From the IMG/VR virus record IMGVR_UViG_3300025115_000012, positions 1 through 57,165 of that record: a stretch of 57,165 bases of DNA, one strand, 5' to 3'. Shown in pieces: positions 349 to 57,165 of the stretch (position 1 is the first letter of the stretch; each line of letters opens with the position of its first letter). The position numbers and the translations under genes are program-made. Under the pieces are notes generated by a model that worked only from the letters and a program-made list of their open reading frames with translations, searched no databases and was not told the origin of the DNA. The stretch is from a virus. Taxonomy: Duplodnaviria > Caudoviricetes.

Positions 349-484
349 TCAAGCGTTAGAAGCAGAAATCAATCAAGGTTTAGCACAGATAACACAAAAC
401 ATTGTAACTGATTTGCAGTTTGAGGCAAGCGAAAGAGAGAAGAAGCGTTATGGGGCACAGCAAAGACCTCCAGGAGCGATGTAA
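1..484 (+). CDS. 3' part of a 300-aa putative ring/adaptor protein that starts at 56399 and crosses the junction
   Basis: The frame of ORF 62..484 is open back through the repeat to ATG 56399; function inferred from position after the capsid genes. Confidence 0.75.
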   Translation, partial: SQKNTQWRQSIAWSHHGNEILVFTGSGVVTSLFPARNTNRALTLEDTHFVAWGFRNPILDNLVPEGIPNFGSYNDPAKGLLIQNYYSYIDLPDQYAMLLIKMTQKNILEQLREQVPQALEAEINQGLAQITQNIVTDLQFEASEREKKRYGAQQRPPGAM

Positions 485-30500: not shown

Positions 30501-33500
30501 TAGCATTAGAATCTATTGAGAATTTAGAATCAGTCGGGTTTAATGTTATCGAACCATCCAGCATTGAAGGTGCAGGGAACCGGATTAAGAGTGGTCAGAA
30601 AATAACGGATATGATTGATATCCAAACTGCAAGTAATCGTGGGGTTAAAGAAGAAAGTGTTATTTCTTTGAAGTTGGATAAAATTATAAACTTCGCTTTA
30701 ACATCTGAAAACGTAAACACAGCAGTGGATATGCTTGTTGATGCTTGGGAAAGAAACATGATTGAATCTCAAGGATCCATGATGAACACAGATGGGACTT
30801 CGACATATGATCCTGCATATTATTTGTTAAAGACTAATAAACAGGCATTTGATTCAGACTTACCTTTAGCAGAACAGTTATCAGCCATGAAGGCAAATTT
30901 GACTGAACAGTTGAAAGATTACATTAACTACAAAGAAGCTGTTTTGACGTATAAAAATAGTTTGATGACTTATAAAGAAGCGTTAATAGATTTTGAACAA
31001 AGATATTTACGTAATAACGAAATAGTAGAAGCTAATCCTAATGTTAATATATTAAATGACTTAATGAAAATTCAGTCCTATATAGACCGGATTGGGAATG
31101 TTGAGGCAAAAGATCTTAATCGGCTTACCAAGACATTAAAGGAAGGAGTAAGTTTAAGCGAAGTCTCTACTATATTTGATCAAAAGTATATTAAACCGGC
31201 AGAAGAAACATTGAACAGTTATCAAAACAATGTAAAACTTATAAACGAACAAATAAACAATTCACTTAAAGGCAATGCTAAAAAAGGATTCCAAATCGGC
31301 AGGAATAAGATTCGTAAACTTATTGATTTATTAACTCCGGAAGAGAGGGTAGAGCTTGACCGAAATGGTTGGAGTTTCATGATAAAACGATTCCTTCCAG
31401 AAATTGATGCGATTGCTGAAGAATCTTCTTCTAAAGCGGAAAAGCTTGATGAGGGATTTAGGATTGTACCGGATCTTAAGGCAAAAGCTAAATTTATGAC
31501 GTTAATAGAACATGTTTATAATAACTATTATACTTTGAACAAACATCCTTATCATGACATGATGGTTAAATTAGGATGGTCAGAATATCTAGAAAAACCT
31601 TGGCATAGAATACATACCGCAAATGAATGGAAGTTAGCAAGTAAAGGCAGGGAGATGGTCTTACGTGCACACGAGAGTGCTGTTACAAGAGCTGCAAAGC
31701 AAGAAAGCATAACCGTCTTTCATAAAAAGGATGAGACTAAGTCATTTGAAAGTACTCAAGCTGAATTTAAGCAAATAATGGCTGGGAGCAAATCCAAACC
31801 TTATTGGGGATATACCGATTTATTAAATGCAAATTTTGACCAAACAGAAAAAGCAACTTACTTGTCAAATAGCATCAAAACATTTGGTGAAGATATTGGT
31901 GAAAGAATACAAGGTTCGTTATACAATGTATCTACAGAAAGCATGCGGGTATACTTGGATAACATGAAAGATCCTAACCCATTTGCTCACATGAATACGA
32001 TATCAGAACTTTCAAAAGCTTCTAATGGTCATTATAATTACAGACAAGTTATTGATCCGGCAGAATACAGATTAGAGTTCCATAATGCCGAATTAGGCAA
32101 TAACTTGTTTGTTCCTAAGGGATTAAGCACAGGTGATATCGTTTTGATTGGACTTGAAGGCGGGAGGACTATCCCGGTTAGAATGTTAGGCGGTATCAAA
32201 ATTAAGAATGCAAATGGTGTTTATGATGCATATTACGCTTTTGGGAATGATCCTACAAAGTCAAAAGATTTGAGTTACATTTCTGCTGATAGGATTAAGA
32301 GCATGCATAAAGCAAATGGTGAAACATACTTATCGAAAGCTATCCTGGAAGGTCAAAGAAAGAAATTAAACCAAATAATAAACAATGACCAGGAACTAGT
32401 AAATGCTATAAAAAACGTAGTTGAGATTAAGACAGGCGAACAAAACGTATCTTATGAAAGTTGGGAGAATACAGTGAATCCCAAAGTAGTAAAAGCAATT
32501 GACGAATCGTTGCAGACAAGTGGCGGTAGGAAGATAGTAGAATACATGGCCAATGCCAGCGACAAAGCTGCAGTAGCTTTGTATTACTTAAGGTTAAGGC
32601 ATTTAATAGACGGAGTATTTAAAGCAGGGCTTCATGTAGCTGCAAGCAATCCGGCAGGGGCGTTGTATAGTGGCTTATCTGCTACAACAAAATGGTTGCA
32701 AGGTGTGTTCTTCCAGATAAAGTTTCAAAACAGTATGGGTCATTATGACAGGATATATCAAAACAGTGTTCCGCAACGGAAATATATCAAAAACGGTGTA
32801 GGTGCAATAGGTAGAGGCGTTAGGGCATTGTTAGATCCTTGGTTCCAAAGTGGTGATACGAAGAATGAGATTAATGAAAGGAACATAGCTAATATCGCTT
32901 CACATCTGGTAGCAATGGAACATGGTTTAACAAAACAAACTTTAGGTCAAGAACAAATAAATAGTATTATAGACCGTGCTTTTGAGACTGAAGAAAAAGC
33001 TAATGCGGCAATATACGAAATGATAACAGGCAAAAAAGCTCCTTGGTGGAAACCAGGAGCAACTACGAGCTTGTTGAATAAAATGGCTAAAGGCATGCAA
33101 GAATTAGATCCTGCTTATGGTATTGACAATGAATTAGGTGAACAATTGCGTGCCGGTACAGAATATAACAGCCGGGCAGTTAAAAGAGTAGTTGATAGGC
33201 TTGAATGGGTTAAGGTACCAATAACAAAAAATGTGTATAATTCCCAGACTAAAAGACACGATATTGAAACACAATATTTCCATATTCCAAGGATTAAGGG
33301 CTTATCAGACAGGGATAATATTTTTGTTATGACACTCATGGATCAGTTGCTTGATATTGCATCATTAAAGGGCAGGATAGCGGCTAATGAAATAGGGAGT
33401 GCGAAAAAAGCAGTTACCTCATCTATAAACAATATGAACAGGTATCAATCGCAATATCTGTCCGGATTAGGTTCAATGACACCTGAATTTATGGCAAATA

Positions 33501-34297
33501 AGGCTAAGATTGACCAATATAAAATGATAGGCTATTACGGGAAGAATCTGAAACAGCAAGGATTAATGGCACGGCAGTTATTAAGATTTTCTAATTTTGG
33601 ATTTGAAAAAGGACAAGACCGCAGTACATATTGGAATATCAGGCGTGACATGTACAATGCATATAGAACAGCTATTGGTCCAAAATTCGATACATTCTTA
33701 AACGATATGGCAAAAATCGGTATTCCTATTGGCGAATGGTATTTAGCTGATCCTAAAGCAGATATGACAAGAACAGCAACTGCAATGTTCACATCTAAAG
33801 CACTAGGTGTATTGGTTAAATATAGTGTAAATGCACTAGGAGCAACTACGGCTAATGCTATTATGAGTGCTTTTGAAGATCCGGAAAAAGATTTAAGTGA
33901 GATATTTTCAATGTCCGGATTTGCTTTTGGTCCTTTAGAGATATTGGCAAATACATTAGCAGGAATAATAAATTTATATTTAATGTTTACAGCAGAAGGT
34001 AAAACAGGCAAACATGAAGCAGCTCTTCAGTCCAAACATGCTCGTGATTTTATGATGAACCCAGGCAAAGGATTTAGCGGCGTATTAGGGAAAGGTGCAA
34101 CTGACGCTATAAATGCTGTAACAGTTGCGTTATTTAATGCTTGGGCACATTTGGGCGGTTTTGACAATATGTATGATAGAGATCCATGGCAAAAATTAAA
34201 CAAGTATAATATGAAAGTTGAAGAAAATATGTTAAATTACATCTACGGCGGATTAGGAAATGCAAAAACCGCTGCAGAATTATATTACACCAAATAG
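18509..34297 (+). CDS. Giant polyvalent virion protein with two-barrel RNA polymerase, zincin, ART-like and NADAR/SLOG/macro-like domains
   Basis: HEMTH 20912..20926; FKEWFGDW...YHAT...GYDGII...AFDPTQVKSAT 21494..22567; TDG 24005, KGML 24146, GGDYDGD 25427..25447; YEVSSAGDKRFSAL 26459; YVFGDN...GGQA...GLGTGLA ~27815..28170. The start codon is uncertain. Confidence 0.85.
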   Translation: MPENELLTIKPNTDFGFKPRLNPGLNPGQQIPTKADKTATNIPDKVALENTAERYDPLKRIEADRTGASYTPYKPKYDLIQGKSREAEQINKVKALTDELDWQYDPDRLDREENKKRLYGGLDLGVSFHKKWDYDKNSYTHTIGIDLNKIDLAEQELNKRFKEFETEMRSKFGNDPLMMRRLNEGINSERGFQGLLDTDFSWDVIKDWMHIAGGGAGEGMTFNRDMRKMVDFIHTYLKAKDDLRKVRNLRPLSDRLKEKNGEEYQNYHERPINYDFNDVGTYYMGKAIDGAFGKLANGLSKRFFGETIYNKSDVLSLQENIQNFIESGYYSDKPEIEQNSAEIARYLAERDESTTGLFDTAVMVGGDIAEIVASMRAGPFALGGRLYSSGRNVWNAYKGVERANKINQTTKLINLNKIYAESPEYAKRYNMFKALSGKHNTRGVASGGMLPKVQDLLGNRADYIGNMVVGSFVDQMLSMDENLTAPELAEGMRNMAILAMFNYQYSKAFMYAGQMAGLTKNVMQGTRYGNAVGSKFDALSKAMIAAGQFAAQPGQSLTINNVLEGEDYTAKQMVADVMFGFMMGYNDFLLTSRSYKVFKRANLRDDIIKSNYAEVDYIPYEHIYYTDTHTNELRTRTKPMTEGKEGDLLQIDMSKPEQAAFDQVVQDRIKQAEGTLKKGEMITVKSSNKANMQGVSILKTQSFGRKIDSEVRRKLSIDENIPIKATHLIEAFSDGMNQVRIPKYIQELFKDISDNIDVILTDQLGESTPAAYKDGKFYLNDNLGLVTKTGKIDKEASIAISHEMTHALIDHAIKVNPDFAIAIEEIYQQYFNKVTDFVKKNPEAYSIINEKAGGILNKTFLNIDNDGNPDHYRNMQEMIALMYEASSKAKYFRTLMHNVDPSLKGKFLGKIANAFGLSPEAYKRIDHELTNYKKYINPEAEQTAIDYDTGTENAIPGEMPYADENVVYDEDVDYLDSPETFRPLDMSTESLKTDSFKEWFGDWETDPENASKTTGSSWKKMITDEYQKAKSSGMKYSERQKIFDPQTGVLKLDLNDPYHNRLKYELENDLPITFYHATGVSEDFTQFQPFRKRKTGNWYGIYGSISPKLNESYAGTKRNENNLIDFADKVKDAFTGNWNKKPNLASPSPRQIPLYFNLKNPLILNEHLGGKKLGTTYVQFDYEFHNPVEQARETFIMVRDVLANALGSKSLKKITYSQAKVAVGTIAASLPLLLGEPDVYKSVENLARLGMVSAGFASSGEVASLLASSLYQVKRQIDKVTNPVGKLEKKVAKNPEKYTDISFISEGMYNILKNMGYDGIIFNDGFEILAFDPTQVKSATSNKGTYDSNNPDFLEMATSSLRDDLDEILGGEFDLKKVEFMEEATRILTPQEPGTKREVNNEEKVNYVSLKNKLNLTNEEFVKLLGQDKTTVVERLKQNPELQDPLEINNNARKILHTEPKKSFIIKTRERDYEDDSIVFSGMAEANIDPTGKNILPYRGQPAYLKKGFSRIAADTKIPLLQKIFNSEIMDINGEINTVLTFQFPANKVNPRSFSPTFLHSAIDQGVFILPKTTGQKMMIIPELKDMSRESKNDFVRKANAEIFEKVLDSDYIWNDDYQKREQVMNTVKLLDMDKVIPAVLLDKPIKMREVLKPEYQGMDDKQLEPYIAVNSLIKQKILEFYTDNRKNRQVPDYYQDDAKPSDVYDVLAKHIYMLTDTGGKTYFNKFDKDGKPSLIKGTDKYANILFSEHHNKLIDYDDFKLTAQDEVLEQMEVPEQKERLKNVYGSEIDSNGDVRVRTFNFNQDMVTDLLDAYPELKDSYNRFIQSFDDNVTDGALFCLNQPLYDVLAKSLGITDTKGLAGLKPKGFEYEDNGNIRITKGMLWGPENFKNFGNNEFLSKVIETMQDNNIAILSFPTASKGAHTRRVKFASSPDGKNRYVLNNDNNLIRVEDQTENGWVSNPEATNFEKSNILNNLLNNNAPIPDHFVSKLKITGDDALTFEQYVHKSQVTNTSNGFETLPAFNASSALFNTPEGNAVTRIMRNVIRQNINKYRKIDNALLTIGNLGRRVLATPSKLREDIEFSRKELNSIGIYLKTAKHHFQRMIDNDSGEEAQYLYNMRAEDMVKKIDEMLDDKGKFKPNSLMLLFSLDNVVGGPFLSRGQTVLAKILLFQNLESKIKGRIPTINAKIAPDINMDNVLATTRELLGEAIDAEMNYDPETNSSDYIDEYGKLKEGGAVIGKDIWELENRMREQNNMEPLRIGDKMLFNKTPTDDMTNVLIPTKFAGISPMDGVAIMNGKYVTKYTGGDYDGDGINYVRSDKNFNKADYDRVYDYLDSITELRKSVKDVANEFKELVEKDTKGYLVINKLLGLEPKDNNMSLASEEFGSNMAKHQLGQDKGIVLINNIGHVLNQVALDANNSIASNKVKLSVKLNSRESQEIKVRVNPALDIDKLGMLSFLKQTFVDSYETMPFDREEAVYRTVFNDATVFLPDKTTMSLKDYIKSTGKPAMPILRDIFKKLAEPSLLEARGLWNEQNIADIVDKVLGLDYHDVPNRKDATSYRYTLKDYRRILASDMKESQLMPDVEPVIEPPSKEFLPEVLEQNAIPGEEPGQIPKSVKEVAQSETKQDATPSSLSTKYEWARYAESGYEVSSAGDKRFSALNARLKDGRTIEEAYQLDIKGYRSQGDNWRLGKGKKPLNNITPEDSWSKYKSLWEQFLNENPDLKQDLAQKALGKPLTDKFAETDVSQARALAEILNEQPITSSDQPIQAGPPKVGEMLKEMVSGTKLGAAYGILKGLEGIHAPATKLLVGDNPFELYARLKEKSDIVNTDEYTEQDVVGIVPTDRFEQYEELQNAINSNVLGFTFAVKAPSANKGKNEIYEIIQGMLKEGGYQRYKDTHKWFKPKSKTTTDKAAPEQRVKYVDMGKFDRDPNNRAMGTSADRAMREVADGFIGEVFNEDTKSSTSTSSLHFSNENNISRSTEHLGTEKGMVYFDLPDEAIPGTHTIMLARNSELAKIGLDNSTKKQIKVMHDQGHDFVVGNSWIDQPFHDYLEEIGAKYTVYGHEGKNRIKPKEVKSITEPLTAKPSSEPALKIEEVHRYNPELLRENPDKLYVFGDNLTRKGRGGQAVIRKEPNAVGIVTKLAPSKDAAAYMSDNDLSNNQKIIDADIQNIKSKLSQYPGGLVFPKDGLGTGLAELHWRASETFAYLNRRLAEEFGYKKFNRFPNETTTTKEQAGSFTDAIAKRLADEKAKTASPVLNKPEHVISLGDGIPVMAYLGRENMYENDPAFIDAVRKAFPGIEYANEKSAGRSNSDYIYLNEFAPDKYVMNNRDKHFVVSNQRSWPVLTENGIKYSVIGYEGINWPLRKEHSRNEYSNELTRMIAIQKMHNSIDEVLLGLSKTIKADAQRFPKLKEMFSHFENAKKFNDKVWISSEQTHIAFLVANLAYNGHRSHTSEGNSSPYEVFNTKTNQYEQMEMLYGLTSFKDHLGLPLFKSDKFPNVKIAAGTILKYLIDNNPVKKGEFVVWNKDDAQIIAKDGVLNAYRGGEVKKQINLNEIFDKDGRLVPDWLPSDLLQSKKFRELIDIQNPINKKEFGKVRAKIVKNIAHNMAQEAAQSGLNLDKDILATYIAFHPVKLSKYLAEQIIGGIFNPIFPKHADPKYTLHKKTENYIGKGRAQDYLASNKMDNPWDAISYLKDEGINLKINPQVTLDDHLTKSITSESIGIKGLEMSIESLQDTETSLKHSGYHEFYKSLAKIIEQSPDPELVKLQGKSILDYNYDDMKVLNRKVFLPHLEKILPNLAIKAKMPPEKVSKWAKDNLDKIMDMYGPADLVRELEGDGGYYDKLISPTNDVRQIAKKLAHMSYIMAVADMLKKFETMNTGKDIHNYQILKSRIPTQMINEFSGNKTVYSWNEQILGIPSFNGMGNSVMHYEIMEHNPAINTEVSLPFGTYAKQYPLVRAIQKLTELKAHVDIQNQYVDNQLTASEKLNKNNLALESIENLESVGFNVIEPSSIEGAGNRIKSGQKITDMIDIQTASNRGVKEESVISLKLDKIINFALTSENVNTAVDMLVDAWERNMIESQGSMMNTDGTSTYDPAYYLLKTNKQAFDSDLPLAEQLSAMKANLTEQLKDYINYKEAVLTYKNSLMTYKEALIDFEQRYLRNNEIVEANPNVNILNDLMKIQSYIDRIGNVEAKDLNRLTKTLKEGVSLSEVSTIFDQKYIKPAEETLNSYQNNVKLINEQINNSLKGNAKKGFQIGRNKIRKLIDLLTPEERVELDRNGWSFMIKRFLPEIDAIAEESSSKAEKLDEGFRIVPDLKAKAKFMTLIEHVYNNYYTLNKHPYHDMMVKLGWSEYLEKPWHRIHTANEWKLASKGREMVLRAHESAVTRAAKQESITVFHKKDETKSFESTQAEFKQIMAGSKSKPYWGYTDLLNANFDQTEKATYLSNSIKTFGEDIGERIQGSLYNVSTESMRVYLDNMKDPNPFAHMNTISELSKASNGHYNYRQVIDPAEYRLEFHNAELGNNLFVPKGLSTGDIVLIGLEGGRTIPVRMLGGIKIKNANGVYDAYYAFGNDPTKSKDLSYISADRIKSMHKANGETYLSKAILEGQRKKLNQIINNDQELVNAIKNVVEIKTGEQNVSYESWENTVNPKVVKAIDESLQTSGGRKIVEYMANASDKAAVALYYLRLRHLIDGVFKAGLHVAASNPAGALYSGLSATTKWLQGVFFQIKFQNSMGHYDRIYQNSVPQRKYIKNGVGAIGRGVRALLDPWFQSGDTKNEINERNIANIASHLVAMEHGLTKQTLGQEQINSIIDRAFETEEKANAAIYEMITGKKAPWWKPGATTSLLNKMAKGMQELDPAYGIDNELGEQLRAGTEYNSRAVKRVVDRLEWVKVPITKNVYNSQTKRHDIETQYFHIPRIKGLSDRDNIFVMTLMDQLLDIASLKGRIAANEIGSAKKAVTSSINNMNRYQSQYLSGLGSMTPEFMANKAKIDQYKMIGYYGKNLKQQGLMARQLLRFSNFGFEKGQDRSTYWNIRRDMYNAYRTAIGPKFDTFLNDMAKIGIPIGEWYLADPKADMTRTATAMFTSKALGVLVKYSVNALGATTANAIMSAFEDPEKDLSEIFSMSGFAFGPLEILANTLAGIINLYLMFTAEGKTGKHEAALQSKHARDFMMNPGKGFSGVLGKGATDAINAVTVALFNAWAHLGGFDNMYDRDPWQKLNKYNMKVEENMLNYIYGGLGNAKTAAELYYTK

Positions 34298-39477: not shown

Positions 39478-39813
39478 ATGATAAAAGACAAAATCGAAGA
39501 ATACTTCAAAATGCTAGAGAACCGAAGCTCATCTAAAGGATATATGATTAACAGGGAATATGTTAAATTTAATTTTGATGTGAATGGTTGGGGTAGTATA
39601 ACGATAATCGCTCTTGATGAAAAAAAATTGTATAACAACAATTATCCATTTGATGACTTTATAAAAGCCGCAATTTTGGAGAGAGAGCAAGAACTAATAA
39701 ACCGTGCTTTTGAGTTGGAAGAGATTCACTTCCAAGAAATTAAGTTAGCCGCCAGAGATGAAGCCATTGATATTTTAGCAGGAATTTATTTATCTACGAA
39801 GGAGCAGAAATGA
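39478..39813 (+). CDS. Hypothetical early protein
   Basis: AAGGAG SD; first ORF of the + strand early block. Confidence 0.75.
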   Translation: MIKDKIEEYFKMLENRSSSKGYMINREYVKFNFDVNGWGSITIIALDEKKLYNNNYPFDDFIKAAILEREQELINRAFELEEIHFQEIKLAARDEAIDILAGIYLSTKEQK

Positions 39814-40445
39814 AAAAAATTGATGAACAATGGATAGACACGAATGGGAACAGCTGGAATTCATTGATTTATTCTGAAAAGGAAGCGACGGCAATGTCTG
39901 ATACTTTAATTAACTGTCATGATTGCAGTAATTGCAGTAATTGTTATAAATGCCGTAATTGCTATAATTGCAATGATTGCAATAATTGCCGTGGTTGCAA
40001 TAAATGCCTTAATTGCAATAATTGCAATAATTGTCGTAATTGCAATAATTGCCATTATTGCGATGATTCCAATAATTGCCGTAATTGCCCTGATTGCAAT
40101 AAATGCCTTAATTGTTATAAATGCCGTAATTGCCGTGATTGCCATTATTGCAGTTATTGTAGTGATTGCCGTGATTGCAGTAATTGTTATGATTGCACTT
40201 ATTGCAGTGGTTATCAATCCAACCCCAATCGTATAGTTTCAAAAAAGATAGGTTCAAGAAACGACCAAACAGTTGCATATATTCTGGATGGTCATATTCA
40301 GGTTGTCTGTGGATGTTACAGAGCGGATCTGCAGGCGTTTGAGAGAAGGGTGCAAGAAAGCCATAAAAATAACCCACAATACCTTAAAGAGTATTTGGGA
40401 TTTATAGAGGCAGTTAAATCTTATATTAAACATTTGCAACAATAA
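39810..40445 (+). CDS. Cys-repeat (Cxx)33 solenoid protein
   Basis: 33 Cxx units; C-terminal IGSR...VVCGCY...F...V...H...EY domain of the type found after pentapeptide/hexapeptide repeats in phage proteins. Confidence 0.8.
   Translation: MKKIDEQWIDTNGNSWNSLIYSEKEATAMSDTLINCHDCSNCSNCYKCRNCYNCNDCNNCRGCNKCLNCNNCNNCRNCNNCHYCDDSNNCRNCPDCNKCLNCYKCRNCRDCHYCSYCSDCRDCSNCYDCTYCSGYQSNPNRIVSKKIGSRNDQTVAYILDGHIQVVCGCYRADLQAFERRVQESHKNNPQYLKEYLGFIEAVKSYIKHLQQ
39915..40211 (+). repeat. 33 tandem 9-nt units, consensus TGCAATAAT
   Basis: Read directly from the sequence. Confidence 0.95.
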
Positions 40446-43360: not shown

Positions 43361-43919
43361 CCAACTGCTTAGCAGTATTAAGAAAAATCAAGACGAAGTT
43401 TTAAGCAAGATATGCAAATTTGAAAAGCCCTTGCCTAAACAGTTCAATTTGTATGAAAAATATATTGTACGTCCATTTCTGTGGAAAGGCAATATAAGAT
43501 CTTATTATACTATGCGAATAAATTGGCATGAATATCTTGCTGATCAATTAATCATTAGCATGATAGCACGTAAGGTGCTTTCTGTTGATAGCGATGGCGT
43601 TTATGAAATAATATCGGGAATTGGGAAAGGACTAAAATTTAACAAGGGGAGTTGGAATCAATCCCTGATAGAATTGCCTATGTTTGACAGCAAGGCATGG
43701 GCAGAATCTAAATTCGCTAAAGGAACATTTGGCAAACAAATCAAGCGTCTTGACAAGGACTTCCAGAAATACGTAGAAGAACACCAGGCTCTTTATGACG
43801 AGATAGCTGAGGAAATAGAGGCAATCCGGAACACGGCAGAGATCTGTCTTGAAGGGAATATCCAAAGATGGTTAAATCTCTTAGAAAGAGCTGAAATAAT
43901 CTGCAAGGAAAAGAAATGA
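43347..43919 (+). CDS. Hypothetical protein
   Basis: AAAGGA SD before ATG 43347. Confidence 0.7.
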   Translation: MKTVSQLLSSIKKNQDEVLSKICKFEKPLPKQFNLYEKYIVRPFLWKGNIRSYYTMRINWHEYLADQLIISMIARKVLSVDSDGVYEIISGIGKGLKFNKGSWNQSLIELPMFDSKAWAESKFAKGTFGKQIKRLDKDFQKYVEEHQALYDEIAEEIEAIRNTAEICLEGNIQRWLNLLERAEIICKEKK

Positions 43920-44230
43920 TGAAAATACCTTTAATGACAAAAGTCAAAGATGTTTTTGATACCTTATGGCTTTTTATACTTGTATCAGTAATCGTTTCTG
44001 GTGTTGTCTATTTGGGATTTAAAGCACTCGAATACCAAATCGCAAAGGACATAATTGCAGTTCAGTACGAATTGAAATGGGCAAAGGATAGTGCCAGGAT
44101 TGCAAGACAAACCGATACCATAGCCGCTATGCGACAAAGGTTGAAAGTATGCGAAGGCAGTGTAGATAAGTATAAGAAAATAATAAACAAGAAATATGAA
44201 AGGAGAACAGGGAGAGATGGCAAAGAATAG
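43916..44230 (+). CDS. Membrane-anchored coiled-coil protein
   Basis: TM segment LWLFILVSVIVSGVVYLGF followed by a helical region. Confidence 0.65.
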   Translation: MMKIPLMTKVKDVFDTLWLFILVSVIVSGVVYLGFKALEYQIAKDIIAVQYELKWAKDSARIARQTDTIAAMRQRLKVCEGSVDKYKKIINKKYERRTGRDGKE

Positions 44231-49337: not shown

Positions 49338-49345
49338 TATATTTG
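49338..49345 (+). promoter_or_regulatory. TAnnTTTG -7 box upstream of portal
   Basis: TATATTTG ending 30 nt before the portal ATG and downstream of a terminator. Confidence 0.5.
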
Positions 49346-49374: not shown

Positions 49375-51597
49375 ATGATTCCAGAGAAGATAAAGCGGTT
49401 TAATAAATGGTACCAAAAAGCACATGCGGCTAGGACATCCGTATTTGACGAAAGGAAGAATCATGAAGAGTTCTACTACAATGACGTAGAAGCCACTAAG
49501 TCCCAATTCACAAAAAATCAAAAGGCCACGATAGACGCTACTTACAACATCCCAATAAGCACTAAACTTACTTATGCTATAATTGAACAACTTATTTCTT
49601 TCATTACAGGCACTAAACCTTATCCTCATATTATTGCTCCTACTGATGCACAAAGTGACTTTGCTGTTTTATTCGCACAGGCTTATCAAGGTTGTTGGTA
49701 TGAGAGCAAGGGTGATCGGGAATTGAAATTAGCTATAAAGGATGCATTTGTAGCAGGGAGTGGTTTTATTCGGGTAAGACGGAGTAACTTCTTTAATGAA
49801 AGCACTTTTAACTGTGTAATTGAGCATGTACCTTGGTCATGGTTAGTTATTGATCCTGATTCGAAAAAAGAAGATTTTAGTGATGCCGAGTATATTTTCA
49901 TATCCCGCAGTATGTTAGTTTCTCAAGCGGAAAAGACCTATGATATTGATATTAAACAAGATCTATACGAAGGCAATACAGGAAATGTTATAACAGATGA
50001 CGAGAACTACGCTGATTTTTATGAAACTGATGGCAGGTCAAGAGATCAAAAGTATGTAACTATTAGAGAATTATACTACAAAGATGAAGTTAATCTTTAT
50101 ATTTCCGACGAAGGTGATATCTCATTAAAGAAACCAAAAATCGTTCAAATTCCTAACCGAATGAAAGAGGAACTAAGAGCCAAAATAGAAGAAGCTCTTT
50201 CCGAACTTCAAAGCATGGAACAAGAAGGTATGGATATGGGTCAAGGAATGATTGAAACAGACGGCATGGAAGACCAATTAGTTGACGCAGAGACCTTTGG
50301 ACAGAAAACTCAAGCAGGGAAGGTAGTCGGGCAAGGAGTGAATGAATTAGCAAGTACTTCAGCAGACCTAGCAAATGAAATAGAAAAAATGAGAATAGAA
50401 TATTATCAAATGCCTGATATGGTCAGAGGGTTCCAGATGGAGATTGAAGACAGGACATTAGATAAGGATTTGCCTGCAAGAGAACGCAAGGAAATTAAGG
50501 AAGTAGAGAATGTGACCAAGGTAGTAAAGAAGAGAATAAGGTATTCTTTATTAGTTGGTAATAATGAAATAGAAAGCGATGTACTCGAAACTGATAAGTA
50601 TCCTATCCATCATATTTGCTTCCAGCACAATTTGTCACCTAACAAGACTTATGGGACAGTCCACTATGTAAAAGACTTCGTTAAGGCTCAAAATAAATTT
50701 TGGTCAATGCTTATATACGACATGCAGGTCAATAATAACAGAAGAGTATTATACGCAAGAGGGACAATAGCGGATAAGGCTCAAGTAGAAAAACATTGGA
50801 GATTGCCAAATGCATGGATAGAGTATATTCCTAATCCAGGATTACCAAATGCGGGACAACCGGTTGTACAAGAACCGTCGCCGTTAAGTCAGGCTACTGT
50901 TTATGTAATTGATGCTATGAAAAACCTGGTCGAGTACGTAACCGGTATATTTGGAGTGATGCAGGGCGATAATAGCCAAGCTCCCTCTACTGCTACGGGA
51001 ACAACAAGTTTGCAAAATTTTGGTTCGCAACGTCCTAAATTGTATGCACGTTCTCTTGAGTACTCATTACAAGATTTAGCATATTCAACAGTTAAGTTTT
51101 TGCAAATGTATGCTCCCAGGGATAAGACTTTGATGTACTTCGATATGGACGGCGATGAACAGGAATTAGAAATACTTAGTGATGTAGAAGATACCCAATT
51201 TAAAGTAAGAGTAGAAATAAGCAATTCCTTGCCTACTCATAGAGCCATGTATGCTCAATTACTTGGAGTGGTTGCAGGACAAACTAAAAATCCATACGTT
51301 GCTGACCATTTAACAAAAACGTTTTTGAAAATGCTCGATATGCCTGAATCCAGACAGTTAGCAGAAGATATTGATATGATTAAGCAGATGGAGCAACAGT
51401 TACAGCAAGCTCAACAAGCTTTAGATGCAGAACAGAAAAAGAATAAGTCATTAGAAAACAATCTGTATCAAAAGGGACTTAGTAACAAGGTTGATGTGGA
51501 TGCAGCTAATGCGAAAAAAGATGTTGCAGTAGAAAAGCAAAAAGCAATTGATGCTATTGCACCTGAAGAAGATAATAGTTCAAGTATGATGTTTTAA
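49375..51597 (+). CDS. Portal protein (P22-like)
   Basis: EFYY...Q, DAFVAGSGF, VIDP.S...DFSDAEY, YG.V...KD...AQN, VTGI...MQG motifs and a coiled-coil C-terminus. Confidence 0.9.
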   Translation: MIPEKIKRFNKWYQKAHAARTSVFDERKNHEEFYYNDVEATKSQFTKNQKATIDATYNIPISTKLTYAIIEQLISFITGTKPYPHIIAPTDAQSDFAVLFAQAYQGCWYESKGDRELKLAIKDAFVAGSGFIRVRRSNFFNESTFNCVIEHVPWSWLVIDPDSKKEDFSDAEYIFISRSMLVSQAEKTYDIDIKQDLYEGNTGNVITDDENYADFYETDGRSRDQKYVTIRELYYKDEVNLYISDEGDISLKKPKIVQIPNRMKEELRAKIEEALSELQSMEQEGMDMGQGMIETDGMEDQLVDAETFGQKTQAGKVVGQGVNELASTSADLANEIEKMRIEYYQMPDMVRGFQMEIEDRTLDKDLPARERKEIKEVENVTKVVKKRIRYSLLVGNNEIESDVLETDKYPIHHICFQHNLSPNKTYGTVHYVKDFVKAQNKFWSMLIYDMQVNNNRRVLYARGTIADKAQVEKHWRLPNAWIEYIPNPGLPNAGQPVVQEPSPLSQATVYVIDAMKNLVEYVTGIFGVMQGDNSQAPSTATGTTSLQNFGSQRPKLYARSLEYSLQDLAYSTVKFLQMYAPRDKTLMYFDMDGDEQELEILSDVEDTQFKVRVEISNSLPTHRAMYAQLLGVVAGQTKNPYVADHLTKTFLKMLDMPESRQLAEDIDMIKQMEQQLQQAQQALDAEQKKNKSLENNLYQKGLSNKVDVDAANAKKDVAVEKQKAIDAIAPEEDNSSSMMF

Positions 51598-51612: not shown

Positions 51613-52791
51613 ATGCCAGCCGAATACGAAGATACCGGTTATACAGATCAATATGATTATGTTGATGATATTTATGATGATGAAGATAGTCATTATAACG
51701 ACATAGAACTAGAACAGGAAGAGATTATTAACAATGATGAGGATGATAAAGATTATGGGGAGGTTCCATATACCGACGGATATGACGATGAAGATGGATA
51801 CGATGACCTGGAAGGACAGGAAAGAGAAAAGGGAGAGGACGAAGAAGGAGAAACGGATGATGAAGCTTATGAAGAAACACCATCAGGAGAAGATGGATTA
51901 GATGGAGATGATTCAGGAGAGAATTCTTTTGAAGACATACCTGCTTATTTCCCTGAAGACTTGTTACCGGATACCTATGAATTTAAAGACGAGAAGGAGG
52001 AGTTGGATTTTTACCGGACTACCTTTCCGGAAGTGCTTAAATTCTACAAAGAGGGAGGATTTAGTCAAGCTTTTATTGACAACTACGAGAATGAGTTAAT
52101 CAGCAAAGAAAAGGACGTTGATGAATTACTCGCAATCCGCAAGGCGGTAAAAGGCGAAGATGGCGAATTGATGATGAAAACACTTTTTCCTGAAATTGCA
52201 TTACAATATGGTATTGCTCCACGATTAAGTGAAGAAGAGATGACGAGATATGTTGAGAAACACATGACAGACACATTTGGAGAGAATTACCGCCGTTATT
52301 TTGATAAAGATGATATATTGGATCCCAAATCTATGAGTTCACGGATGCTGCTTGAACAGCAAAGGTTTATAGAGCAAGTGAACAGGCACAACCAGATTAA
52401 TTGGGAAGAGCGATTAGCAATGAGAACACAACCTACAACCCCGCAGGTCGAGCCTGAAAGATTAGAGAAGGAAGTTGGAAGGCAATTTAACGAATATTTT
52501 GCCAAAGCCGATTATACGGAAAATGAGTACAAGGAATTTTTAGATGAGCTTAGCAATTTTAGGTACGACTTACAAGATATGCATAGGGCTCTTTACTTTG
52601 ATGAATACGTTTCAGATGCCTACCAAAAGGGGCTAGATGCAGGTCGTAAGGCTTACGCCAAAGAACTTGCCAGAACGAATGGTATTCCACTCACGCACCA
52701 ACAGAGACAAAGCAGGACAGAAAACGATGAAGAAGAAAACCCTTATTTTTCTTCGGATGCTATTATAGCACGAGGCGGAATAAGTTATTAA
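51613..52791 (+). CDS. Putative scaffolding protein
   Basis: Very acidic N-terminus and helical remainder; located between portal and capsid. Confidence 0.65.
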   Translation: MPAEYEDTGYTDQYDYVDDIYDDEDSHYNDIELEQEEIINNDEDDKDYGEVPYTDGYDDEDGYDDLEGQEREKGEDEEGETDDEAYEETPSGEDGLDGDDSGENSFEDIPAYFPEDLLPDTYEFKDEKEELDFYRTTFPEVLKFYKEGGFSQAFIDNYENELISKEKDVDELLAIRKAVKGEDGELMMKTLFPEIALQYGIAPRLSEEEMTRYVEKHMTDTFGENYRRYFDKDDILDPKSMSSRMLLEQQRFIEQVNRHNQINWEERLAMRTQPTTPQVEPERLEKEVGRQFNEYFAKADYTENEYKEFLDELSNFRYDLQDMHRALYFDEYVSDAYQKGLDAGRKAYAKELARTNGIPLTHQQRQSRTENDEEENPYFSSDAIIARGGISY

Positions 52792-52815: not shown

Positions 52816-54303
52816 ATGGCAGTAACCCCGAATGTCGCAAGGGAAGGCGGAAATATAGCTGGACTATTTACTAGTCACCAAATCCCTGAAAGACTATTAA
52901 AAAGAGGTATTACCAATTTAGGCAAGATGGCGTTCATTACTAGAGCAATGAACAGTTATAGCTCGGTTTTGCACACAAGATTCCCGGCAGGGAAGAATGT
53001 TAACACAAGAGAGCACAAAGTATATGAATTAACAGAGCTGGATCGCACTTTTACATGCGTTGTAGCATCTGCAGATCCAGGAGCACCGGCTAATGCACAC
53101 GATACATTTGGTTTGACAAATGCTCAAGCGGCACAGTTAGTTCCTAATGATATCCTATATCGAATTAATGGGTTTGCTTTTGTCCAAGGACAACCCATGC
53201 GTGGCGGTCAGTTACTCGACACGATTCCACCGGCTTTACCGGCAAACTCACCTAATCCTATGGATTATACAATGGGCAATGACCCAACTATTGTCAATTT
53301 CGGAAATACCTTTGGAATTGACGCACAAGGTATACCTTATGTGGATTACGAACAAATGCTAATTACAACCATTGGTGCTCCCAATTCAGCAGGATTTGGT
53401 AATACAAATGTTACTGTAATGCGATGCTTTAAAGGTCCTGGAGCGACTGACTTTGGTGGAAGGATGGTACCTATCAATTTGATCAATGCAGGTATTCGTG
53501 CTAATCCGGCAGTAGCAGGGATTCAGGTAGGTGATATATTGTTACGTGGTGGTTCCGCATGGCGTGAAGGTACCAATGCACCAACAGGTTTGACCAAGAA
53601 CCCTGTCATTGATAACAACTTCACTCAAGAATTCAAATGGGCAGTAGAAATGACCACTGAAAGCGAAATCGAAGAACTTTGGAGTGACAAGAAACCGTTG
53701 GATATTAGCAGAATGTTGCTGAGAAAAAGAATGGTTATGGATGTAGAAAGAAAATATTTGTTCGGTCAGAAAGGTAAAAGCGTTGATAGTCAGGGTAGGG
53801 TACTTTACACAATGGGCGGAGTGGTCGAGTTTATTCCAAAAGATCCTGCTCATATATTGACTAACCCTGGTAATTTAAGTTATCAGTCATTACTCAATTT
53901 GGGACCGGCGATATTTGGATTAGGCGGTAGTTCTGAAAGAGACGTATGGGTAGGTTATACTCTTCATGCACGGCTCAAGCAAGCATTTTACAATTCCGGA
54001 TTCATGAGAACTAACCCGGAGATGTCAAGGCACTTCCGATTACATGTCGACACGATTGAAACTACAGGTGGTATCTTGAATATAATTCCTTCATTCGCAA
54101 TGGAAGAAGCTGGTTGGTCAACGAGGGCGATTTGTCTTGATCCAGGTTATCCTTCTTTTGTACCGGTAACTCATTCAGGTTGGGATATGAAAGTAGAAAA
54201 GAACATTCAAGAACCAGGAGCCCAGATCTATAAAGAGCAAGTTGTTGGCATCAAAGGCTTGGAAAGACGTTATTCTCAATATCACTGTTTACTTCAATTT
54301 TAA
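52816..54303 (+). CDS. Major capsid protein (HK97 fold, DUF5309-like)
   Basis: AGGAGG SD; EG...P......N.TQ.F, D.E...LFG......G.....GG, ..T..G.L.II motifs. Confidence 0.85.
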   Translation: MAVTPNVAREGGNIAGLFTSHQIPERLLKRGITNLGKMAFITRAMNSYSSVLHTRFPAGKNVNTREHKVYELTELDRTFTCVVASADPGAPANAHDTFGLTNAQAAQLVPNDILYRINGFAFVQGQPMRGGQLLDTIPPALPANSPNPMDYTMGNDPTIVNFGNTFGIDAQGIPYVDYEQMLITTIGAPNSAGFGNTNVTVMRCFKGPGATDFGGRMVPINLINAGIRANPAVAGIQVGDILLRGGSAWREGTNAPTGLTKNPVIDNNFTQEFKWAVEMTTESEIEELWSDKKPLDISRMLLRKRMVMDVERKYLFGQKGKSVDSQGRVLYTMGGVVEFIPKDPAHILTNPGNLSYQSLLNLGPAIFGLGGSSERDVWVGYTLHARLKQAFYNSGFMRTNPEMSRHFRLHVDTIETTGGILNIIPSFAMEEAGWSTRAICLDPGYPSFVPVTHSGWDMKVEKNIQEPGAQIYKEQVVGIKGLERRYSQYHCLLQF

Positions 54304-54315
54304 TTAGGAGAAAAA

Positions 54316-54846
54316 ATGAGAAAAATAATTTTAATTTTGGCTTTAATATCCTTTGTTTATACAGGTTTCGCCCAGATACCTGCATACAGGGGAGATTTGA
54401 ACAAACTGATTGATGTAAGTAATCAAGTGGTAGGCGATGGGAATAAGACGTTAAACACAAGTAGGGATACCGTTTACTATGTAAGCGAGATATTCCATAC
54501 CCAATTTTGCGATTCATTGTTTTTTAATTGGGAATACGCTTCGCAGAAAACACTGATAGGGTTCCATAGCGATTCGCTTCAAGTTTATCTACGAATACAA
54601 TGGTACAGCCCGAACAATACGTCAAACACGCCATATTTACCTAAAAATGAAGCAAGTTTTGCAACACAAGATTCGGTACATTTTAAACCATTTACTACAT
54701 TAGGAAACATTGTTTATACTCGACAACCTTGGCAATACAACGCTAATAAGACGAAAGCACGCATATGGGTGAGAGTAGTAAACAATACGACTACGATACA
54801 AAGACTTAATTTGAAAGTTTGGTCAATCAAAAGATGGAATGATTAA
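54316..54846 (+). CDS. Signal-peptide-bearing beta-sandwich protein, paralog 1
   Basis: MRKIILILALISFVYTGFA|Q Sec-type signal; AGGAG SD. Confidence 0.75.
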   Translation: MRKIILILALISFVYTGFAQIPAYRGDLNKLIDVSNQVVGDGNKTLNTSRDTVYYVSEIFHTQFCDSLFFNWEYASQKTLIGFHSDSLQVYLRIQWYSPNNTSNTPYLPKNEASFATQDSVHFKPFTTLGNIVYTRQPWQYNANKTKARIWVRVVNNTTTIQRLNLKVWSIKRWND

Positions 54847-55262
54847 TGAAAGTATTATTAATATTTTTTATTAGCGTTGCCATCCTGATTGCCGCAACAC
54901 CGACAAGACAGACCTTGACTAGTTATTCGAAAACACTAGGAGCAGGAAGTTCCGACACTTCTAGTGTATCGAATATCTTAATGGACGGAGACAGTCTTGG
55001 TATAATCCTGGAAGTTAGTCAGGATAGCATTTCAGGACAGATCAGGTATGAATACACTTCACCTCAAGGTTATACCAATGGAACTGCTTTTGGTTCTCTT
55101 CCGGTATTAGCCACATTCAGCAGCAATGAAAAGGGTGTTTTTACTACTTCGATACCTATGATAGCAGGAGCGGAAAGGGTAAGGTTGTACATATTAACAA
55201 CTAATAACAAAACCGCTTTACAAGTAATTAATTTTTATGTTTATGCAATTAAATGGAGATAA
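54846..55262 (+). CDS. Signal-peptide-bearing beta-sandwich protein, paralog 2
   Basis: MKVLLIFFISVAILIAA; aligns with the preceding protein; TAATG coupling. Confidence 0.75.
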   Translation: MKVLLIFFISVAILIAATPTRQTLTSYSKTLGAGSSDTSSVSNILMDGDSLGIILEVSQDSISGQIRYEYTSPQGYTNGTAFGSLPVLATFSSNEKGVFTTSIPMIAGAERVRLYILTTNNKTALQVINFYVYAIKWR

Positions 55263-55633
55263 CAATGTTTGGACAAGTATTTAGAATAGTAAACTATGAA
55301 AGCCGTTGGGGCGAGGGTCCGAATGACAAATTGATGCTATTACGCACAGTCACTTTGGACGCTAATGGCCAGGCAGTAATTGACATGAGAGGTATTATTA
55401 AGCCAGATGCTATAGTTGATTTTTGGATCATGAGCAATACGGCAATAAATAATACTAATGCTCAAACCTTTGGTACCGCTGCTATCAATATTGACAGAGG
55501 CGGGATGGGTATTTCAATAACAGCAGTAGCCGCAGCAGCTCCGGTACCAGCGGTAGTGATACCAGCAGCTAATGCAAGAGTTACAGTTGCTATAATGTTT
55601 GATGCCCAATGGCTTGCAGAATCAGGTGATTAA
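55253..55633 (+). CDS. Putative capsid decoration/auxiliary protein
   Basis: 126 aa, beta-rich; in the head operon. Confidence 0.5.
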   Translation: MEITMFGQVFRIVNYESRWGEGPNDKLMLLRTVTLDANGQAVIDMRGIIKPDAIVDFWIMSNTAINNTNAQTFGTAAINIDRGGMGISITAVAAAAPVPAVVIPAANARVTVAIMFDAQWLAESGD

Positions 55634-56418
55634 TGCAAGTCTGGGAAGCACATAGAGCGTTAAGTTTGCAATTAGGCGATAGTGTTGGGTTAGAAAGATT
55701 AACTTCTGCACCCAACATTATCCCTGATGGTGTAAGAACGAGCACTGCTTTAAGGAATGCTTATTTGTACAGAGCAATGCTTCACCTTATGAATACCATG
55801 TTAAGAGATGTGGTATTAATGCCAAGACAGACAGCTACAGATATTATATATAAGCTTTATCCGAACATGATTGCAAGAGCTCATCTCACTGTACCATCGA
55901 TAAGGACACACACTTTTAGAGACGTAACTGCGGAATTTAGCCTTGATGACTTTGCAATCATGTACTTATTATCAGTCCAAGTGAATAAAAATGGTGGACA
56001 GGCTATATATCCTATCCCTATTAAGCATGCTTTGCAAAAGAATGGGTTAATGAATCCACGCAATGCCCAAAAATGTGATGCGTTTTGTACCTTGCACCAT
56101 GACGTAGTAGGTACAGGTTCAGATCCTACTAAGTATCGTTTGTACATGTACGATCCGAATAATACATTATGGGATACCCAACCTGTACCTACTACGTCAC
56201 ACATTTATATTATTTATTTACCCTATCCGACTGATCCGCAAACGCAAAATCCTGATGCGAATATTACTTTTGAAGAAAGTTATATGAGTTTGGTATTGCA
56301 ATATGCGACCTTGTTCGGCATGGGCGACAATCAAGATTTAAGTTCACCAGAACGGTTTTATCCAATTACTTTAAACAGCAATATAAGCGGAGGTCATAAT
56401 GCCGGTCCATCTAATTAA
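55633..56418 (+). CDS. Putative head-tail ring/adaptor protein
   Basis: L...LGD...R..YL.RA helical N-terminus and I.Y...P...E.....L.YA C-terminus typical of adaptor proteins. Confidence 0.6.
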   Translation: MQVWEAHRALSLQLGDSVGLERLTSAPNIIPDGVRTSTALRNAYLYRAMLHLMNTMLRDVVLMPRQTATDIIYKLYPNMIARAHLTVPSIRTHTFRDVTAEFSLDDFAIMYLLSVQVNKNGGQAIYPIPIKHALQKNGLMNPRNAQKCDAFCTLHHDVVGTGSDPTKYRLYMYDPNNTLWDTQPVPTTSHIYIIYLPYPTDPQTQNPDANITFEESYMSLVLQYATLFGMGDNQDLSSPERFYPITLNSNISGGHNAGPSN

Positions 56419-57165
56419 CAATTCATTTAATGGTTTGTCACCTTTAAGTTCGTTTTGGACGCATCAAACGATTGCATCTGAAGCAATGGTCTTGACAAAC
56501 ACCATAGATAATGAGAATATCCAATTGGATAACATCCGTCATCATATTAATAGTAATATCAGTTATTTAACTAGTTTATTAAATTTGGCAACATCACCTT
56601 GGTATGGTATATTTTTCCAATGCACATTAGAAAGCACTCTCCATCCAAGTGGATTAGAATTCATAGCTTTGGCATCTGGGAATTTATTATCGTTAGATAT
56701 TGCTTCAAGACTACATTCGATAAAAAGACTAAATGTAGTTCCTGAACGGAATGCTCCAAATGATGCTTTTGTCGGTAATTGTATCAAGCAAGATATTTCG
56801 CAATTAACAGAGTTAATGTCGCAAAAGAACACTCAATGGCGGCAATCAATTGCATGGTCGCATCATGGGAATGAGATATTGGTATTCACCGGTTCGGGAG
56901 TAGTCACTTCTTTATTTCCTGCAAGAAACACAAATAGAGCATTAACTTTGGAAGATACTCATTTTGTTGCATGGGGATTTAGAAATCCGATATTAGATAA
57001 TTTGGTTCCGGAAGGTATTCCCAATTTTGGTTCTTATAATGATCCGGCAAAGGGACTTTTGATTCAAAATTATTATTCATATGTTGATCTTCCTGATCAA
57101 TACGCAATGTTATTGATAAAGATGACGCAGAAGAACATTTTAGAGCAATTAAGAGAGCAGGTACC
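56399..57165 (+). CDS. 5' part of a putative ring/adaptor protein continuing into 1..484
   Basis: GGAGG SD then ATG 56399 (MPVHLINNSF...); open to the window end. Confidence 0.75.
   Translation, partial: MPVHLINNSFNGLSPLSSFWTHQTIASEAMVLTNTIDNENIQLDNIRHHINSNISYLTSLLNLATSPWYGIFFQCTLESTLHPSGLEFIALASGNLLSLDIASRLHSIKRLNVVPERNAPNDAFVGNCIKQDISQLTELMSQKNTQWRQSIAWSHHGNEILVFTGSGVVTSLFPARNTNRALTLEDTHFVAWGFRNPILDNLVPEGIPNFGSYNDPAKGLLIQNYYSYVDLPDQYAMLLIKMTQKNILEQLREQV
56818..57165 (+). repeat. Terminal direct repeat, right copy
   Basis: 343/348 identity to 1..348. Confidence 0.97.

Follow-up and report, generated by a model that had tools for sequence, protein, structure and literature searches.

Paralogous jelly-roll proteins with predicted signal peptides follow the major capsid gene in a clade of uncultured podophages

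The virus record IMGVR_UViG_3300025115_000012 (IMG/VR; Caudoviricetes), analysed here over its whole length of 57,165 bp and referred to below as the window, carries directly after its major capsid gene two short open reading frames (ORFs), ORF A and ORF B. Their products are paralogues and belong to a family of small jelly-roll proteins, as yet undescribed, from a clade of uncultured podophages with a P22-like portal and an SU10-like capsid protein. Judging from their leaders and from those of their relatives, both proteins are very probably exported via the Sec pathway, and a set of conserved sequons makes O-glycosylation of the mature proteins by a Bacteroidota host rather likely. These sequons are a new point, missed by the initial annotation of this locus. 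As to function, we tentatively regard A and B as accessory head proteins that would mature in the periplasm and meet the capsids at lysis, a reading that is weighed below against its rivals.

Leaders and paralogy of ORF A and ORF B

The two proteins are divided as follows (arrows mark predicted cleavage sites and junctions):

54316–54372 (+): predicted signal peptide of ORF A, residues 1–19, cleavage GFA↓QIP
54373–54843 (+): mature jelly-roll domain of ORF A
54846–54896 (+): predicted signal peptide of ORF B, residues 1–17, junction IAA↓TPTR
54897–55259 (+): mature jelly-roll domain of ORF B

Signal-peptide calls, here and below, come from our own heuristic, which combines hydrophobicity with small residues at positions −3 and −1, rather than from SignalP. 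The N termini quoted in the initial annotation are correct, and by this heuristic both proteins start with a leader of the Sec/signal peptidase I (SPase I) type without a lipobox, small residues occupying positions −3 and −1 in each (GFA↓Q in A, IAA↓T in B). A has a single cysteine, at residue 65, and B is cysteine-free; a strict regular expression found no lipobox-like ORF in the window. A and B are the only plus-strand ORFs of at least 60 amino acids (aa) in the window whose hydrophobic stretch begins at about residue 4, the remaining hydrophobic matches on this strand being internal transmembrane segments or ORFs in the wrong frame.

The paralogy of A and B is real, but the earlier claim that they align along their length was overstated: the BLASTP alignment is confined to the last ~90 residues (25/90 identities, E 1e-4 in a single comparison), MAFFT gives 24–26% identity, and residues 20–46 of A have no counterpart in B. 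By sequence comparison, B is unrelated to the product of the next gene, ORF C.

A word-based search returned A itself plus one 45%-identical protein and nothing more. The contig of this protein (L001) has the same A-B-C-adaptor gene order and encodes a capsid protein 78% identical to that of the window. The L001 orthologue of A (46% identity) has the site ALS↓QIP, and the orthologue of B (67% identity) the junction IAG↓TPTR. Identical positions number 4/19 (A) and 9/17 (B) in the leaders and 76/155 (A) and 84/121 (B) in the mature parts; the L001 leaders remain hydrophobic despite this drift in sequence, and the residues directly past the predicted cuts are conserved (QIPxYR in A, TPTR in B). 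The possibility that translation starts downstream of the hydrophobic segments, raised by the initial annotation as an objection to export, was not borne out, since A has no second methionine and the post-cleavage residues are kept in L001.

Conservation of the leader in the family and in the post-capsid slot

An exhaustive HMMER search, in which a profile of four mature sequences was run against 1.84 billion representative proteins, yielded 37 proteins at E≤1e-3, 15 of them at E≤1e-10. All 37 are 83–183 aa long, none is a fused form, and the matches start at about residue 20–50 of each protein, so that the N termini are extra to the profile. Leaders were scored in 36 of these 37 proteins together with the slot proteins of related loci, 54 distinct sequences in all. 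A charged (K/R) n-region followed by a strongly hydrophobic h-region of ~10–16 residues is present in 53 of the 54, and the lone leader-less member, P0005, looks N-terminally truncated. Because the hydrophobic N terminus is kept in these members while its sequence drifts, it is more than a chance feature. Absence of the leader from homologues, which the initial annotation had named as a finding that would speak against export, was thus not observed.

The slot behind the capsid gene was surveyed in viral and metagenome contigs that were searched by capsid-protein alignment alone, the genes then being read downstream of each capsid gene. Including the window, the survey comprises 28 loci with 20 distinct capsid proteins, 41–78% identical to the window's. 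The capsid gene is followed directly by one or more genes for signal-peptide proteins (137–221 aa) in 17 of the 20 distinct relatives; two such genes are found in three of the 20, namely, the window, L018 (same contig as L001) and L028 (same contig as L004). At every locus where the genes could be read as a clean chain, C-like and adaptor-like genes come next. Several single-copy slot proteins score worse than E 1e-3 against the family hidden Markov model (HMM). The single-copy subfamily matches the family profile in hhalign at 96.6% (E 5e-10), a score that is inflated by the leaders included in both alignments; the match spans the mature domain, and the motifs DT, D[ST] and SPxG are common to both.

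Capsid proteins of one sub-branch of these relatives (L012, L013, L015) share a 30-residue deletion with respect to window residues 128–157, and the sub-branch also comprises the three relatives in which the signal-peptide gene is missing. A link between the deletion and loss of the signal-peptide gene was ruled out, as L012 has the deletion yet keeps the gene.

Of the 54 distinct members, 20 have an AXA↓Q-type site; among the 15 distinct first-slot proteins from the survey by capsid protein, 13 have one, and only L012 and the A protein of L028 do not. The cleavage script ignores the identity of the +1 residue. B-type members share a small-small↓[TS]-P junction, which is SPase I-compatible. 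Under the Q-rule, which has a mean Q-value of 71% in Bacteroidetes and covers ~60–77% of substrates, the exposed glutamine is cyclised to pyroglutamate (PMC5837995; for this and the other papers cited below, statements refer to the accessible part of the text). The pyroglutamate proposed earlier for the N terminus of A gains support from this pattern. Export, likewise put forward in the initial annotation, is well supported by the 53 of 54 leaders kept and the AXA↓Q sites of the first-slot proteins. From the Q-rule pattern and the sequon pattern described below, the only two clues to the host, we infer that the host phylum is Bacteroidota: the window has no tRNA that would help to place the host, and a scan of genome contigs with the capsid-protein alignment returned no relative and hence no host from prophages.

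The family is not part of any described one, so that the match to a characterised family named in the initial annotation as a possible refutation was not obtained. Pfam and PHROG searches with A, B, C and all 39 aligned members gave only single-member chance matches, a profile search of PDB sequences gave nothing under E 0.2, and tblastn of B and of P0014, another family member, against 50,697 phage records gave no match. Scans of viral contigs with the B-type representatives P0012 and P0010 likewise found nothing. In the Atlas, DUF6385 came up as a lead, at 15% of one cluster. For the capsid protein, one match was obtained among cultured phages, to a Vibrio phage (23.9% identity over 49%).

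Conserved O-glycosylation sequons

The mature proteins contain triplets that fit D-[ST]-[AILVMT], the Bacteroidota general O-glycosylation motif, here termed the sequon. The sites in A and B, with their columns in the family alignment (A3), are:

54466–54474 (+): sequon D51-T-V of A, column 81
54511–54519 (+): sequon D66-S-L of A, column 96
54571–54579 (+): sequon D86-S-L of A, column 126
54670–54678 (+): sequon D119-S-V of A, column 159
54954–54962 (+): site D37-T-S of B, column 81, in which the third-position Ser makes a less common motif variant (PMC12871550)
54990–54998 (+): sequon D49-S-L of B, column 96
55023–55031 (+): sequon D60-S-I of B, column 126

The full motif is present in 30 of the 39 aligned members at column 81, in 37 at column 96, where the Asp is invariant, in 31 at column 126 and in 11 at column 159. 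Indeed, the invariant or near-invariant residues of the family (D47, S48, T33 and N137 in mature-A numbering) fall mostly within three D-[ST]-hydrophobic triplets. A has four sequons and B two (plus the D-T-S site), whereas ~0.4 are expected from shuffles. Over 45 family sequences the mean is 3.24 sequons, compared to 0.66 in shuffles, and 32 of the 45 exceed 95% of their own shuffles. In total, 146 occurrences of D[ST]φ (φ, hydrophobic) were seen versus 29.6 expected; as the sequences are related, these counts represent three or four conserved sites and not independent events. Ten control motifs (E, N, Q, K or G in first position, reversed, D[AG]φ and others) gave ratios of 0.25–1.25. Across 12 related loci, 50 sequons occur in the 2,375 aa of signal proteins (2.11 per 100 aa), about five times the densities of the capsid protein (0.38), C (0.45) and the adaptor (0.42). 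In the other 37 proteins of the window, which total 16,340 aa, sequons are depleted: 26 were counted (0.16 per 100 aa), versus 43.5 expected.

O-glycosylation in Bacteroidota modifies only non-cytoplasmic proteins, usually occupies its motif sites near-fully and acts both on engineered motifs and across species (PMC12871550). Its known substrates are like A and B in being non-cytoplasmic and in carrying D-[ST]-[hydrophobic] sequons, and are unlike them in being host proteins (PMC12871550).

Sequon counts were also recorded for two further products of the window. A giant ORF of 5262 aa (18509–34297, +), with matches to ART-PolyVal (E 8.7e-9) and DUF7831 (E 4.3e-35), encodes a polyvalent, probably virion-internal protein and shows the strongest depletion in the genome (3 sequons versus 13.4 expected). 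A 104-aa protein encoded in the replication region (43916–44230, +) has an N-terminal transmembrane segment at residues ~17–35 and a charged helical C-terminal part, which give it an i-spanin-like look, as well as three sequons (DTL15, DSA58 and DTI67); an adjacent lipoprotein partner was not found.

Predicted fold

AlphaFold2 models built with the 39-row alignment are 8-stranded jelly rolls/β-sandwiches for both A (predicted local distance difference test, pLDDT, 79.7; predicted template modelling score, pTM, 0.77) and B (pLDDT 96.4, pTM 0.87), in agreement with the β-strand pattern previously read from the two sequences. The models were compared with PDB and BFVD by Foldseek and with 48,161 chains by VIA-align. 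The top VIA Z is 9.8, 41 chains reach Z≥8, and Foldseek TM-scores are ~0.4–0.6. The matches form a crowd of jelly rolls: viral capsid jelly rolls, the Eph ligand-binding domain (LBD), GOLD domains, carbohydrate-binding modules (CBMs), the YPM superantigen and the XepA N-domain. XepA (6i56, Z 9.2), YPM, GOLD, Eph LBD, the infectious bursal disease virus (IBDV) VP2 domain, CBMs and the cement protein of phage KHP40 were considered as counterparts and none was adopted, all of them being tied within this crowd. The modelled fold would suit a lectin-like binder as well as a protein of the capsid surface. When the capsid protein was co-folded with mature B, the score was 0.00 and the mark 0.32, which counts neither for nor against binding.

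Gene order and transcription

The window is a complete-looking record (37% GC, classed linear, CheckV completeness estimate 100) with nearly all of its genes on the plus strand. The region around A and B is organised as follows:

49375–51597 (+): portal (P22_portal, E 9.8e-44)
51613–52791 (+): acidic scaffold-like protein of the head module
52816–54303 (+): major capsid protein (SU10_MCP, E 2.5e-19)
54306–54310 (+): AGGAG Shine–Dalgarno-like motif, 5 nt ahead of the ORF A ATG
54316–54846 (+): ORF A, 176 aa, stop included
54846–55262 (+): ORF B, 138 aa, stop included; the start codon overlaps the ORF A stop (TAATG)
55253–55633 (+): ORF C, 126 aa, without signal peptide; the start overlaps the end of ORF B
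55633–56418 (+): adaptor-like protein; a weak SU10_adaptor match (E 0.074, under the family cut-off), with its position kept in relatives
56399–57163: gene following the adaptor-like gene, cut by the contig end

The stop codon of the capsid gene and the start of ORF A are separated by 12 nt. Between 48000 and 57165, no terminator-like site was found on the plus strand (six were detected, all on the minus strand, while shuffled sequences give 5.1), and promoter-like sites are no more frequent than by chance. Given the tiny or overlapping gaps, the lack of a plus-strand terminator and the chance-level promoter signals, the sequence places A and B among the late head-operon genes, predicted to be transcribed and translated together with those for the portal, scaffold and capsid protein; the late-gene placement made in the initial annotation thus stands. 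Identity between the window and L001 is 39% for the scaffold, 78% for the capsid protein, 46% for A, 67% for B, 56% for C, 53% for the adaptor and 65% for the protein designated X, and GC content at third codon positions (GC3) is 0.29–0.34 across ORF A, ORF B and their neighbours. That A and B diverge like their neighbours at uniform GC3 argues that they are vertically inherited parts of the head module and not recent morons. Moreover, the features of morons, namely, their own promoter and terminator, deviant composition and sporadic distribution, are not seen here: transcription signals are at chance level, GC3 is neighbour-like and the slot is kept in 17 of 20 relatives.

The sequence TATATTTG at 49338–49345 (+), ~30 nt upstream of the portal start codon, matches the −7 promoter element of Bacteroidota; genome-wide, this motif shows no enrichment. 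In the window, the Bacteroidota promoter motif TAnnTTTG has 72 matches versus 71 expected and the two-part motif 4 versus 3.6, so that both counts are uninformative. A search of sequencing runs listed one DNA data set, possibly the source sample, and no RNA data set.

ORF C has a counterpart of 92–126 aa in 18 of the 20 distinct relatives, among them all three in which A and B are absent; a clean ORF C chain was not obtained for L005, where the contig ends soon after, and L019. ORF C and its counterparts (L005–L031) have a conserved N terminus of the type YRL.N...RPG..P.D, their Atlas neighbours are viral hypothetical proteins, and neither a Pfam nor a PHROG family was found for ORF C. It is a likelier counterpart of the gp10 slot of phage SU10 than A or B.

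A CHAP-domain hydrolase gene is located ~2 kb downstream of the adaptor gene, in the same operon, in L001 (10674–11219, E 1.4e-5) and in L004 (4800–5546, E 0.0021). The window contig ends (56399–57163) inside the gene that precedes this CHAP slot, and the first ORF of the window (2–484) is not CHAP. The hydrolase gene of the window may be missing at the contig ends despite the CheckV rating as complete.

A proposed role and its rivals

We propose that A and B are made together with the portal, scaffold and capsid protein from the late operon, as indicated by the gene order. A cleavable Sec/SPase I leader would then, with high probability, take each protein out of the cytoplasm, and A, with glutamine at +1, would become pyroglutamylated. 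Outside the cytoplasm, the mature proteins would probably be O-glycosylated by a Bacteroidota host at the conserved sequons; as this modification is confined to non-cytoplasmic proteins, export would gain a purpose. The last step is put forward more cautiously: A and B may be decoration-type accessory proteins of the outer head, which mature in the periplasm and reach finished capsids only once holin and endolysin merge the compartments late in infection, the virions then carrying host-type glycans. Holin lesions make such a meeting of capsids and periplasm physically plausible. The full chain, from the late operon to an accessory head protein that meets capsids at lysis, is our tentative choice. 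Points favouring the virion link are the fixed place in the head module over deep divergence, the neighbour-like evolution, the gp10 slot of SU10 and the rationale for export. Furthermore, a copy number varying from 0 to 2 is typical of accessory head proteins and favours a virion-linked role. Like decoration proteins, A and B adjoin the capsid gene in the head module, are small and β-rich and are dispensable among relatives. Unlike decoration proteins, which are made and assembled in the cytoplasm, they have a signal peptide conserved family-wide, and for this reason we do not file them as ordinary cytoplasmic decoration proteins. Of the three roles suggested in the initial annotation, membrane-associated assembly is the least supported, because the folded domain is predicted to lie on the periplasmic side, whereas procapsids are cytoplasmic. 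A more elaborate version, in which a head-accessory protein is sent via Sec to acquire pyroglutamate and a host O-glycan, docks within seconds of holin opening and leaves virions cloaked without any phage glycosyltransferase, is speculative and on balance unlikely.

Several observations weigh against the proposed role or against steps leading to it. We know of no tailed-phage head protein that is exported, and contact of A or B with the capsid is inferred from context only. The slot gene is missing in three of the 20 relatives (L013, L014 and L015/L031), in which the capsid gene is followed by the C-like protein and the adaptor, and the gene is therefore dispensable. The fold is a generic jelly roll without a stand-out match and as such settles nothing; the cement protein of Helicobacter phage KHP40 (7dou) ranks tenth among equals. 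In the model of B, the conserved D-[ST]-hydrophobic triplets sit at loop-to-strand junctions (DSSP string), and their role could be structural instead of glycan attachment. None of the three second-slot (B) proteins has an AXA↓Q site, and the B-type junction could belong to an uncleaved anchor. With regard to the host, Shine–Dalgarno-like motifs (AGGA, GGAG or GAGG) lie 5–20 nt upstream of 22 of the 40 gene starts in the window, against a background of 12%, and Bacteroidota genes are thought to make little use of Shine–Dalgarno pairing. The Q-value is low in most groups other than Bacteroidetes, with the exceptions of Ignavibacterium, some Chlorobi and some cyanobacteria (PMC5837995). Finally, the precedent from Cellulophaga phage phi10:1 discussed below concerns tail-region proteins described by record annotation only, among which co-purifying contaminants are possible.

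The main rival, which we regard as somewhat unlikely, is an envelope-acting factor outside the virion: a late soluble periplasmic (glyco)protein whose binding partner would be a receptor, a wall hydrolase associated with the tail or some other component of the envelope, and which would block superinfection or lysis from without, or mask receptors in debris. T4 Spackle and T5 Llp are functional parallels. Export is well supported and exported phage proteins normally act on the envelope, the jelly roll resembles ligand- and carbohydrate-binding modules (Eph LBD, GOLD, CBMs), the gene is dispensable and present in 0–2 copies, and the CHAP hydrolase gene lies ~2 kb downstream in the same operon of L001 and L004. 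However, exclusion factors are mostly expressed early or during lysogeny and occur sporadically, and many have signals of their own and an unusual composition, whereas A and B have no transcription signals, are neighbour-like in GC3 and divergence and hold their head-module position down to 41–48% capsid-protein identity. They also have no lipid anchor or membrane segment that would hold them at a receptor, and no homology to known exclusion proteins was detected in Pfam, PHROG and PDB-sequence searches. The high late expression implied by the operon position would suit a soluble glycoprotein that is freed at lysis and acts, without binding capsids, on neighbour cells, polysaccharide matrices, grazers or other phages; a lectin-like fold would serve such a protein, and pyroglutamate and glycans have been linked to the stability of extracytoplasmic proteins (PMC10653852). 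This idea has no specific evidence in its favour and leaves the retention of the gene inside the head module unexplained, and we consider it improbable.

Timing and abundance would also fit an accessory lysis factor, building up in the periplasm and helping to disrupt or detach the outer membrane or to time lysis, as a way of dealing with Bacteroidota envelopes without spanins. In several phages, such as T7 (18.5/18.7) and P2, lysis genes lie within late structural operons, and the lipobox scan found no o- or u-spanin-like ORF in the window, although with a strict lipobox expression and a contig that ends inside a gene, lysis genes may simply be missed. A spanin identity was rejected on architecture (no lipobox, all-β jelly-roll models). 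More generally, A and B are soluble all-β jelly rolls without membrane anchor, coiled coil or lipobox, and three of the 20 relatives lack the gene in an otherwise identical module, which makes a lysis role quite improbable. A further explanation dispenses with export: the hydrophobic N terminus would be an assembly arm or a cytoplasmic-side tether, or translation would start downstream, and A and B would be ordinary cytoplasmic decoration proteins. The slot is typical of such proteins (SU10 gp10), and the export calls come from a heuristic prediction. Yet the n-h-c architecture with small −3/−1 residues persists in 53 of 54 members despite drift, and glutamine follows the site in 13 of the 15 first-slot proteins, a host-specific export signature. 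A has no internal methionine and its post-site residues are conserved, Pfam and PHROG scans detected no prohead protease between the portal and capsid genes that could remove an arm, and the sequon enrichment tracks non-cytoplasmic location. Taken together, these points make a cytoplasmic location very improbable. Cargo of the type IX secretion system was also considered and gained no support, there being no Por_Secre_tail-type Pfam match in the 39 members at E≤1; no C-terminal domain structure is among the listed fold matches, which leaves room for one.

Comparison with described systems

According to the initial annotation, no described system matches this arrangement. The arrangement itself was indeed not found described: a literature search, in which subscription papers were only partly covered, returned no published account of exported or O-glycosylated proteins in a phage head module. 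Partial precedents do exist, namely, the Q-rule proteins of Porphyromonas prophages and gp091–gp094 of Cellulophaga baltica phage phi10:1 (KC821618.1). The latter, known here from the record annotation alone, are annotated as ‘structural protein, experimental MS/MS’ (tandem mass spectrometry), and their leaders end SA↓Q, FG↓Q, SA↓Q and NA↓Q, respectively; gp082 and gp083 of phi46:3 have similar leaders. In common with A and B, gp091–gp094 come from the late structural module of a Bacteroidota phage and have Sec-type leaders that end before Gln. Unlike A and B, they are large (317–777 aa) siphophage tail-region proteins with a sequon density of 0–0.75 per 100 aa, and they have no sequence relation to the family (no tblastn match of B or P0014). 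Phage phi10:1 is thus a real, if indirect and partial, precedent in the phylum for exported proteins that co-purify with virions. In Porphyromonas gingivalis, prophages encode Q-rule proteins, with functions not known, that are predicted SPase I substrates exposing Gln (Matrishin et al. 2023, PMC10367356). Comparably to A, they have been read as an adaptation to the Bacteroidota secretion pathway; in contrast to A and B, they belong to temperate siphophages, and the accessible text mentions neither sequons nor a head-module slot (PMC10367356).

In phage SU10, gp10 is a putative minor capsid protein encoded between the capsid protein gp9 and the adaptor gp11 (PMC9509320). It shares with A and B the slot, a related capsid-protein family and its nature as a small β protein; it differs in its predicted Ig-like fold and in not having been seen on the SU10 capsid, and no signal peptide is mentioned in the accessible text (PMC9509320).

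Among envelope-acting proteins, compared here by description, A and B differ from T4 Spackle, T5 Llp, lambda Lom and Bor, and the spanins in fold or anchor, these being α-helical proteins, lipoproteins, outer-membrane barrels or coiled coils. All of the latter are phage-encoded and Sec-exported and act on the envelope, and some are encoded within late operons. Glycans on virions of tailed phages have a precedent in mycobacteriophages, where glycosylation is cytoplasmic and due to phage glycosyltransferases, whereas here it would be carried out by a host periplasmic system. A mycobacteriophage genome announcement mentions putative capsid glycosylation by phage glycosyltransferases (PMC11256854).

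Implications

If A and B join the virion, an exported and probably host-glycosylated product of the head operon would break the cytoplasm-only picture of head assembly, textbook heads of tailed phages being built entirely in the cytoplasm. Together with the signal-bearing proteins of phi10:1, this would make part of tailed-phage morphogenesis in the phylum extracytoplasmic. If they do not join the virion, they would define a new class of phage factors in Bacteroidota, periplasmic and made late in abundance; lysis, exclusion and receptor use are poorly known for the phages of this phylum. The sequon pattern could serve as a sequence-only marker of host phylum for uncultured phages. The family is small, its fold is modelled with confidence, and the marks predicted for it are clear, namely, pyroglutamate at Q20 of A and glycans at the D-S/T sites.

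Other features of the window

At 39919–40236 (+) and 39906–40217 (−), alternative-frame ORFs contain long A/I/V/T repeat runs, which points to repetitive DNA inside the gene at 39810–40445.

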